Below are positions 50,301 through 53,300 of a stretch of DNA of 63,859 nt, piece by piece; the first letter of the stretch is position 1; each line of letters starts with the position of its first letter. The stretch is from Saccostrea cucullata. Its lineage: Eukaryota. Where the stretch lies: positions 372,001-435,859 of the forward strand of contig NW_026930674.1 in the NCBI RefSeq assembly GCF_032062105.1, written 5' to 3'. The position numbers and the translations under genes were made by a program. The notes below the pieces were generated by a model. That model had not been told where the DNA came from. It made no database searches and was given only the letters and a program-made list of their open reading frames with translations.

Positions 50301-53300
50301 ATCCTGCTGAGCCAGAAACCTAAGAGCAGCAATTTCTGCAAAGGTGACCCCTCCCAGGAATACCACTAAAGTCACCTTCTGGTCCATCACACTGGAATGT
50401 GAGGAAGTAATGGAGGAACCTAAAAGTAGTCAGATAGTTTATGTGAGGAAGTAGTCGAGGGACCTAAAAGTAGTCATGTGAGGAATTAATGGAGAAACCT
50501 AAAAGTAGTCAGATAGTTTATGTGAGGAAGTAGTCGAGGGACCTAAAAGTAGTCATGTGAGGAATTAATGGAGAAACCTAAAAGTAGTCGGACAATTTAT
50601 GTGAGGAAGTAGAGGAGGGACCTAAAAGTAGTCATGTGAGGAAATAATGGAGGAACCTAAACATAGTCGGACAATTTATGTCAGGAAGTAAAGGAGGAGC
50701 CTAAAGTAGTCAGACAATTTATGTGAAGAAGTAATGGAGGTACCTAAAGTAGTCAGTCAATTTATGTCAGGAAGTAATAGAGGAGCCTAAAGTAGTCAGA
50801 CAATTTATGTGAGGAAGTAATAGAGGAGCCTAAAGTAGTCAGACAATTTATGTGAGGAAGTAATAGAGGAGCCTAAAGTAGTCAGACAATTTATGTGAAG
50901 AAGTAATAGAGGAGCCTAAAGTAGTCAGACAATTTATGTGAGGAAGTAATAGAGGAGCCTAAAGTAGTCAGACAATTTATGTGAAGAAGTAATAGAGGAG
51001 CCTAAAGTAGTCAGACAATTTATGTGAGGAAGTAATAGAGGAGCCTAAAGTAGTCAGACAATTTATGTGAAGAAGTAATAGAGGAGCCTAAAGTAGTCAG
51101 TCAATTTATGTCAGGAAGTAATGGAGGAACCTAAAGTAGTCAGACAATTTATGTCAGGAAGTAATGGAGGAACCTAAAGTAGTCAGACAATTTATGTCAG
51201 GAAGTAATGGAGGTACCTGTAAGTAGTCAGTCAATTTATGTCAGGAAGTAATAGAGGAGCCTAAAGTAGTCAGACAATTTATGTGAAGAAGTAATAGAGG
51301 AGCCTAAAGTAGTCAGTCAATTTATGTGAGGAAGTAATAGAGGAGCCTAAAGTAGTCAGACAATTTATGTGAGGAAGTAATAGAGGAGCCTAAAGTAGTC
51401 AGACAATTTATGTGAAGAAGTAATAGAGGAGCCTAAAGTAGTCAGACAATTTATGTGAGGAAGTAATAGAGGAGCCTAAAGTAGTCAGACAATTTATGTG
51501 AGGAAGTAATAGAGGAACCTAAAGTAGTCAGTCAATTTATGTCAGGAAGTAATGGAGGTACCTGTAAGTAGTCAGTCAATTTATGTCAGGAAGTAATGGA
51601 GGTACCTGTAAGTAGTCAGTCAATTTATGTCAGGAAGTAATGGAGGTACCTAAAGCACTATAATAATAAAGATTCTATGTTAAATTGTACATCAATTGGA
51701 CACTCTTTATGTACATTTATTAATGATGTTAACATGTATGCCAATAACAAGTACAGTCTAACCTCCAGTCTTGATGAGGCCAATGAAAGACTACCAGATA
51801 ATCCAAGATTCAAAATAACAAGTGTTAAATACTTTATATAATAAGTGATGGCACATCAATATTACTTCAACATATCCAAGGCATGATGGAAGTGTGAGAA
51901 AACTGAGAGATATCTGAGAATTTGAGATATTGAGTGTATTATACTTAAAGAACATTTGGTTGGGACTTTCAAATCACGTTGACCTATCCATAGCATTCAA
52001 AATATTGGTGTTTGAGAAAATCAAGAGTAAATGTATATGTAATGCAAGATATTGGTGTTTGGAATACTCAAGTGTAACTGTATATGTAATGCAAGATATT
52101 GGTGTTTGGTATACTCAAGTGTAACTGTATATGTATTAATAAATGCAAGATATTGGTGTTTGAGAAAATCAAGAGTAACTGTATATGTAATGCAATATAT
52201 TGGTGTTTGGAATACTCAAGTGTAACTGTATATGTAATGCAAGATATTGGTGTTTGGAATACTCAAGTGTAACTGTATATGTAATGCAAGATACTGGTGT
52301 TTGGTATACTCAAGTGAAACTGTATATGTAATGCAAGATATTGGTGTTTGGTATACTCAAGTGTAACTGTATATGTAATGCAAGATACTGGTGTTTGGTA
52401 TACTCAAGTGAAACTGTATATGTAATGCAATATATTGGTGTTTGGTATACTCAAGTGTAACTGTATATGTAATGCAAGATATTGGTGTTTGGTATACTCA
52501 AGTGTAACTGTATATGTAATGCAAGATACTGGTGTTTGGTATACTCAAGTGAAACTGTATATGTAATGCAATATATTGGTGTTTGGTATACTCAAGTGTA
52601 ACTGTATATGTAATGCAAGATATTGGTGTTTGGTATACTCAAGTGTAACTGTATATGTAATGCAAGATACTGGTGTTTGGTATACTCAAGTGTAACTGTA
52701 TATGTAATGCAAGATATTGGTGTTTGGTATACTCAAGTGTAACTGTATATGTAATGCAAGATACTGGTGTTTGGTATACTCAAGTGTAACTGTATATGTA
52801 ATGCAATATATTGGTGTTTGGTATACTCAAGTGTAACTGTATATGTAATGCAAGATATTGGTGTTTGGTATACTCAAGTGTAACTGTATATGTAATGAAC
52901 TAACGTCTCTTTCTGAGGGCTACAGGGATTTGCTGGATTTCCTCGATAGTGGGGCCGGGCAGAAGATTAAGGACCTCTGTGATACTCCTCCAGCCCGGGC
53001 GGGCATTGTACTGGGCCAGCCTGATAGACAGGGGGGCGTAACCACTGTACACATAGGATATATCATTAGGGTTCTACAATAAAGAAAATTGGATTAAATA
53101 TGAACAGACAAATTTTTATCATATAAAAATGAATCTTTCAATTTTCATCATGTAGGATTTTACTTTTTTATAATTAAAATTATATATGTTGTTATATAAA
53201 TTATATATGTTGTTATATAAATTATATATTTAATAATTATATAATCATTGACTAAGCAAAAACAACATAAAATACAATTTATATAATTTTACCTGTTCAT

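Follow-up and report, generated by a model that had tools for sequence, protein, structure and literature searches.

One intron of the VPS33A gene of the oyster Saccostrea cucullata ends in 29 tandem copies of its own 3' splice site joined to the start of the following exon, and the real acceptor stands downstream of all of them. The array is a new and large case of the class of minisatellites that have been described as "mirages." We think it likely, at a probability of roughly 0.8, that it is a minisatellite derived from the locus itself which is tolerated and probably silent, with the acceptor being chosen from the exon side and decay removing the products of rare errors. The analysis covered a window of 63,859 nt (the whole stretch of DNA under study, positions 372,001 to 435,859 of contig NW_026930674.1 in assembly GCF_032062105.1), and all coordinates below refer to that window.

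The host gene is identified as VPS33A, as a first-pass annotation made from the letters alone had proposed. The exon upstream of the array (52905 to 53073, minus strand) matches mollusc VPS33A-like proteins, with 98% identity to Crassostrea; the Pfam Sec1 family was matched, below or above its cutoff, by three of the seven window peptides scanned; and tblastn with oyster protein mapped ten exons in the window. The upstream exon ends in a phase 1 donor (52905^52904) that splits an Arg codon. Sequence and exon mapping together define the GT-AG intron that follows, which is 2485 nt long (50420 to 52904, minus strand) and holds the array, and beyond it lies the real exon of 123 nt (50297 to 50419, minus strand; acceptor 50420^50419, donor 50297^50296), the first 23 nt of which (50397 to 50419) are the template of the repeat. 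The pair of alternative last exons that had also been predicted exists, both members being on the minus strand. The coding part of the first (49181 to 49263) is conserved in oysters and lies within the stretch from 49151 to 49263 covered by an RNA contig from run X5; that of the second (47386 to 47489) encodes the canonical C terminus and is joined to the 123-nt exon in runs X1, X2, and X3. RefSeq isoforms P0122 and P0129 of S. cucullata match these terminal exons, with the junction falling after ...ALRKRR. An open reading frame at 49701 to 49817 was considered as a further alternative last exon and set aside, as it gave no Pfam hit and the RefSeq alternative C terminus maps to 49263-49181. 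The two last exons are paralogous (54% identity over 24 amino acids), representing a duplicated terminal exon, and both forms are found in Crassostrea, Ostrea, and Saccostrea; other molluscs likewise have two kinds of C terminus. At the other end of the gene, the first ~200 residues of VPS33A gave no tblastn match in the window (from 59007 upward, toward the contig end), and two other short contigs carry annotated partial proteins from the VPS33A N terminus (P0123 and P0133).

On the minus strand, 30 AG/G sites (the slash marks the splice junction) run from 51649 to 50419, comprising 29 upstream units and the real acceptor, which bears out the earlier estimate of about 29 tandem copies of an acceptor plus exon start. 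Each unit consists of 23 nt resembling the exon start, then 3 to 12 nt of filler, and then the last 8 to 9 nt of the acceptor. The 23-nt start differs from the real exon start at 1 to 3 positions, and the AG is kept in 29 of 29 upstream copies. The unit length of 43 nt given in the first-pass annotation is right for 19 of the 29 upstream units, the others being 44 nt (7 units) or 35 nt (3 units) long, and 17 sequence types are represented among them. TRF described the stretch from 50634 to 51655 as 23.7 copies of a 43-nt unit with a 94% match, with the proximal remainder being more diverged. Together with unit comparison, this divides the array, as counted in one assembly of this species, into a homogenized distal and central part on the minus strand (copies 1 to 23, with units of 43 or 44 nt; 50657 to 51649) and, by unit comparison, six diverged proximal copies on the same strand (copies 24 to 29, with alternating units of 35 and 44 nt; 50420 to 50656). 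The same intron holds a second minisatellite, a 47-nt unit repeated 19 times (51998 to 52897), which begins 7 nt past the donor and contains no exon sequence; the two arrays account for 2130 of the 2485 intron nucleotides. This 47-nt array was examined as a possible donor-side mirage and was rejected, as its match to the exon spans only 6 nt.

The repeat is derived from the VPS33A locus itself and is not a dispersed repeat. A 28-nt unit pattern allowing at most 1 mismatch found 16 matches in the 1.17-Gb genome, every one of them inside the array, compared with 0 for a control pattern, and a search of the same genome with the exon and the proximal copies matched this locus only. Metagenome contigs searched with a degenerate exon pattern gave 0 matches. 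The peptide encoded by the exon start is conserved across molluscs, and the repeat was therefore copied from the exon rather than the reverse; given this conservation and the confinement of the unit to one locus, capture of a mobile satellite by the exon was rejected. We propose that about 9 nt of the intron end and 23 nt of the exon start were duplicated and joined by a short filler and that the product then would have expanded and been homogenized by slippage or unequal exchange, leaving divergent copies at the edge. The filler itself may have been copied from the next intron, where matches of 9 nt (at 50258) and 7 nt (at 50269), both within 50246 to 50271, are suggestive only; the 9-mer also occurs at three further places in the window, and these short matches, not significant alone, are compatible with a possible origin by template switching.

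Contigs from related organisms bear on the history of the array. Organism B appears, from its assembled DNA, to have a single acceptor and no array: a contig from run X8 follows the window up to 50428 and then matches 51658 to 51687 at 25 of 30 positions, the next best place in the window matching at 21 of 30. The matched stretch belongs to the segment before the most distal copy (51650 to 51687, minus strand), which corresponds by homology to the end of the intron in organism B's single-copy allele. The ancestral acceptor context would therefore now lie 1.23 kb upstream, with a derived copy having taken over as the working acceptor. Two additional AGs, at -10 and -27, are present in the displaced context and absent at the corresponding places in the 30 nt of organism B; they may reflect relaxed selection. 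In another DNA run of organism B (X7), the exon is uncovered, and the gap there is uninformative.

Organism C (run X16) differs from the window at 9 positions in 116 nt at the exon and by 7 to 12% in intron pieces. Three short contigs of this run align to the array end; two of them, of 58 nt each, hold two acceptors 44 nt apart and align ungapped, differing at 9 and 10 positions, and the third, 40 nt long, reaches into the filler. This points to a shared origin for the arrays of the window species and organism C. The depths of the three short contigs (23, 50, and 12, against 7 for a flanking contig) are compatible with several copies but do not give a copy number. Between species, the contigs differ, with a single copy in X8 and at least 2 copies in X16. 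The X16 contigs bear on the question of whether assembly created the array or raised its copy number. The genome sequence is fragmented (23,869 contigs), but the many unit types in ordered variant patterns, the diverged edge copies, and the homologous two-acceptor contigs from another species, in a DNA run independent of the assembly, make an assembly artifact very improbable.

The order of events depends on how the three organisms are related. Organisms B and C, like S. echinata (P0127), have a Val-to-Met change at 50390, a site at which Crassostrea and Ostrea carry Val. If, on the evidence of these few contigs, this single change groups B with C, then the array would be old and would have been lost in B; otherwise, on the same few contigs, it would have arisen in the ancestor of the window species and C. 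As a separate observation, an unrelated animal contig (L057:767-871) has a 20-nt repeat of 4.6 copies, with no exon sequence in it, just before the same VPS33A acceptor.

Regular VPS33A mRNA is made from the authentic acceptor at 50419, as seen in assembled contigs. The spliced contigs of X1, X2, and X3, runs labelled "DNA?," join exons directly and come from one sample of another individual, whose allele may differ from that of the window or lack the array. Contigs of X2 and X3, which show 0 and 1 differences from the window exon, are spliced from 52905 straight to 50419, their upstream end being made up of the final 30 nt of the 52905 exon; at the opposite end they run on into the exon encoding GGTDY. 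The X1 contig joins the last exon to 50296-50419 and ends at 50419, as does the contig from X5, RNA of organism B; the latter is uninformative on decoy skipping because organism B appears to lack the array. Coverage is zero over 50420 to 50465 in X1 and X5 and over 50420 to 50505 in X2 and X3. Logan contigs lose rare variants, so that low-level use of a decoy could go undetected, and these coverage gaps are therefore no evidence against decoy use.

Splicing to any other copy would give no complete protein. When the donor at 52905 is joined to the upstream acceptors, all 29 lead to a stop, which lies between 123 and 1333 nt ahead of the next junction, and 50419 is the only acceptor that is open into the exon. 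The first-pass annotation was thus correct that only the last copy reaches the exon and that upstream acceptors lead to stops, and it understated the latter in attributing frameshifts or premature stops to most of them. In mammals, a stop more than 50 to 55 nt before the last junction marks a transcript for nonsense-mediated decay (NMD), and by that rule the products of the 29 upstream acceptors would be NMD targets.

What distinguishes the real acceptor from its copies is likely to lie on its exon side. Copies 26-27 and 28-29 are identical, and the acceptor of copy 28 (50498) shares 91 upstream nucleotides with the real acceptor and only 3 downstream ones. Branch point and pyrimidine tract therefore cannot tell acceptor 28 from the real one. 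The CTGAC motif to which the first-pass annotation had assigned a branch-like role is present, but its adenosine is only 10 to 11 nt from its own AG; exon-derived CTCAC or CTGAC motifs at -24 or -25 are better placed, and typical branch-point-to-AG distances favor them. Local folding did not single out the real acceptor, whose unpaired fraction was 0.53 within a range of 0.38 to 0.75 over the 30 sites. Likely, the acceptor is picked by features such as the distance to the 50296 donor and the exon sequence beyond nt 23, or else wrong products are degraded. Pairing across the 123-nt exon with the 50296 donor, together with exon sequence beyond nt 23, would favor the most downstream AG, a preference like that reported for human CBS 844ins68 (PMC2630376). 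Of the two ways through the array that had been proposed, skipping of decoys or ratcheting through them, the former thus survives as a decoy array with a productive last copy and a choice probably made from the exon side.

Ratcheting, in which the donor would be joined to an upstream AG/GT copy, regenerate a donor there, and proceed to the real exon, has the sequence of the junctions as its starting point. AG/GT does occur in several copies including the most distal, as first noted: it is found in 14 of the 29 upstream copies, copies 1 to 4 among them, and at the real acceptor, with AG/GC in the other 15 of 29, and in place the CAG/GTACCT form agrees with the donor consensus at 7 of 9 positions. 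Once spliced to the upstream exon, however, the regenerated donors would match at 4 to 5 of 9 positions by a crude count, without +4A or +5G, compared with 6 of 9 for the real donor and 7 of 9 for the next one. Between 51660 and 50420 there is no GT[AG]AG, GC[AG]AG, or GT[AG]A, positions +3 to +6 reading ACCT, TCCT, CCCT, or TTCT, and the array thus offers no donor that could close a recursive-splicing exon. Ratchet points in Drosophila require a cryptic exon of this kind and rely on the strength of the donor (PMC8605326); the oyster copies resemble such points in their AG/GT and differ in the weak +3 to +6 positions, the lack of a recursive-exon donor, the short intron (just 2.5 kb), and a GT that is not conserved among copies. 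The G of this GT is forced by the phase 1 Arg codon (C/GT), in which the T takes the wobble position, and the GT is gone from 15 of 29 copies; in other animals, the same exon starts with GA, GG, GC, or GT. We give recursive splicing, as the first-pass annotation had suggested it, almost no credence.

The same AG/GT duplication brings to mind a classic model of intron gain, which the first-pass annotation had cited. Under the Rogers model, a tandemly duplicated AG/GT serves as a proto-splice site (PMC3265369 and the Fig. 7 legend of PMC3087553), and intron formation from repeats is treated in PMC2812944 and PMC3265369. A reading of the array as intron gain fails on the position of the intron, whose phase 1 site is common to other animals: among the 11 loci examined out of 80 returned by a scan with the upstream exon (best identity, 86%), the next exon follows after an intron at the same place in 8, and the remaining 3 have no next exon in the DNA examined. 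The scan of 80 loci contained no oyster locus. The intron that holds the array is, judged by this shared position, an old one. A newly created 23-nt exon and intron would also depend on a donor inside the array, where there is none, and the insertion of 23 nt would disrupt the reading frame. Intron gain under way is accordingly an extremely unlikely account of the array.

Among known systems, the closest are the amphioxus mirages in Adh3, troponin C, the globins BflGb6 and BflGb9, and PGBD5, which leave regular splicing undisturbed (PMC3087553 and PMC3902484); the first-pass annotation did not name this class. They are likewise tandem arrays of intron end and exon start in which splice signals survive in many copies, the gene still yields normal mRNA, and cluster edges are left out of homogenization. 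The oyster array differs from them in its host, a mollusc rather than a lancelet; in its 30 copies against 3 to 6 in BflGb6; in a filler that is absent from the ancestral intron; and in a working acceptor that appears itself to be a derived copy. In human CBS 844ins68, a duplication of the junction between intron 7 and exon 8, the more distal site is strongly preferred and normal mRNA results (PMC2630376, which calls the sites donors, whereas the study it cites refers to 3' splice sites). That case is a human polymorphism of two copies, tested experimentally, against the 30 copies in the oyster. Two further human minisatellites (PMC1557585 and PMC5954066, respectively) have an end unit that spans an exon-intron boundary and so repeats a splice site: the 37-bp variable number tandem repeat (VNTR) in F7 IVS7, whose identical donor pseudo-sites are functional but silent, and the 25-bp VNTR in ABCA7 intron 18, where splicing varies with length and an isoform retains one unit. 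Both repeat a donor, whereas the oyster array repeats an acceptor, and the effect of length on splicing belongs to ABCA7.

The ABCA7 case is a precedent for a reading in which the upstream copies take a sizeable share of splicing, their products go to NMD, and the length of the array governs VPS33A dose or the choice of last exon. As every one of the 29 decoys leads to a stop 123 nt or more ahead of the next junction, their use would stay hidden; the 91 nucleotides upstream of acceptor 28 are identical to those of the real acceptor, and organism C appears to have the array as well. On the other hand, decoy use was not seen in the contigs (a weak point, as contigs drop rare forms), organism B has an apparent single-copy allele, the F7 pseudo-sites are silent, and in myosin genes, which are unrelated, ~2% of exon ends carry similar arrays. 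We regard such a length-dependent rheostat as unlikely. More specific, and to our minds decidedly improbable, is the idea that the array, an old trans-species acceptor VNTR, took the place of the ancestral acceptor, survived in two Saccostrea-like lineages, disappeared from a third, and acts as a copy number dial that diverts part of the VPS33A pre-mRNA to NMD and thereby sets the dose of this HOPS/CORVET core subunit or the last-exon choice. The tolerated, probably silent minisatellite remains our preferred reading; the apparent persistence of the array in a second species (X16) is allowed, though not required, by neutrality.

The myosin figure comes from 102 myosin-head exon matches in the same genome, examined in 50 stretches; of their 204 ends, 177 were testable. 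The rate is a rough one, since the end of a match locates an exon end just approximately and some contigs may represent alternative haplotypes. A TRF array lay within 60 nt of a match end in 4 of 177 cases and overlapped a splice site in 3 of them (~2%): a 53-nt donor mirage of 3.8 copies, a 21-nt acceptor repeat of 3.7 copies, and a 17-nt donor repeat of 11 copies. The fourth, a 15-nt low-complexity T-rich repeat off the splice site, was dropped. Two more were found by eye outside this list, a 37-nt acceptor mirage of 9 copies and a 47-nt donor repeat of 8 copies, and the VPS33A array, with 30 copies, is larger than each of the five. Two of these arrays, the 53-nt donor-side and the 37-nt acceptor-side ones, lie 450 nt apart in a single myosin gene (L049, G000:C12612:239887-240086 and 240537-240873). 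Other myosin arrays overlapping splice sites are at L028 (G000:C23263, about 33323-33691) and L042 (G000:C9811:187935-188012 and 188166-188344), a set in which one myosin exon is flanked by an array on each side.

Other repeats and genes share the window. Short arrays of a 160- to 175-nt satellite at 17264-18303, 37169-37989, and 56900-57474 are frequent at the other loci examined too and resemble the common oyster satellite of ~166 bp. A 61-nt tandem repeat of 2.2 copies at 32411-32547 contains a GTAAG donor-like motif. Further coding stretches are found at 2057-2782 (plus strand) and at 9126-10379, 16154-16507, and 24757-26803 (minus strand), which from their motifs we take to be ENTR1-like, intronless G protein-coupled receptor (GPCR), SNAP29-like, and Munc13/BAIAP3-like exons.

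The literature search returned no report of mirages in oysters or other molluscs, most subscription papers being outside its reach. As biology, the array is ordinary, one more mirage. It is also a natural experiment in which 30 acceptors compete, one of them with 91 upstream bases identical to those of the real site, and it makes the choice of an acceptor from the exon side testable in a lophotrochozoan. Related species with and without the array would allow the cost of carrying it to be compared. If it were true that array length tunes the dose of VPS33A, the oyster would provide an invertebrate counterpart of the ABCA7 VNTR.
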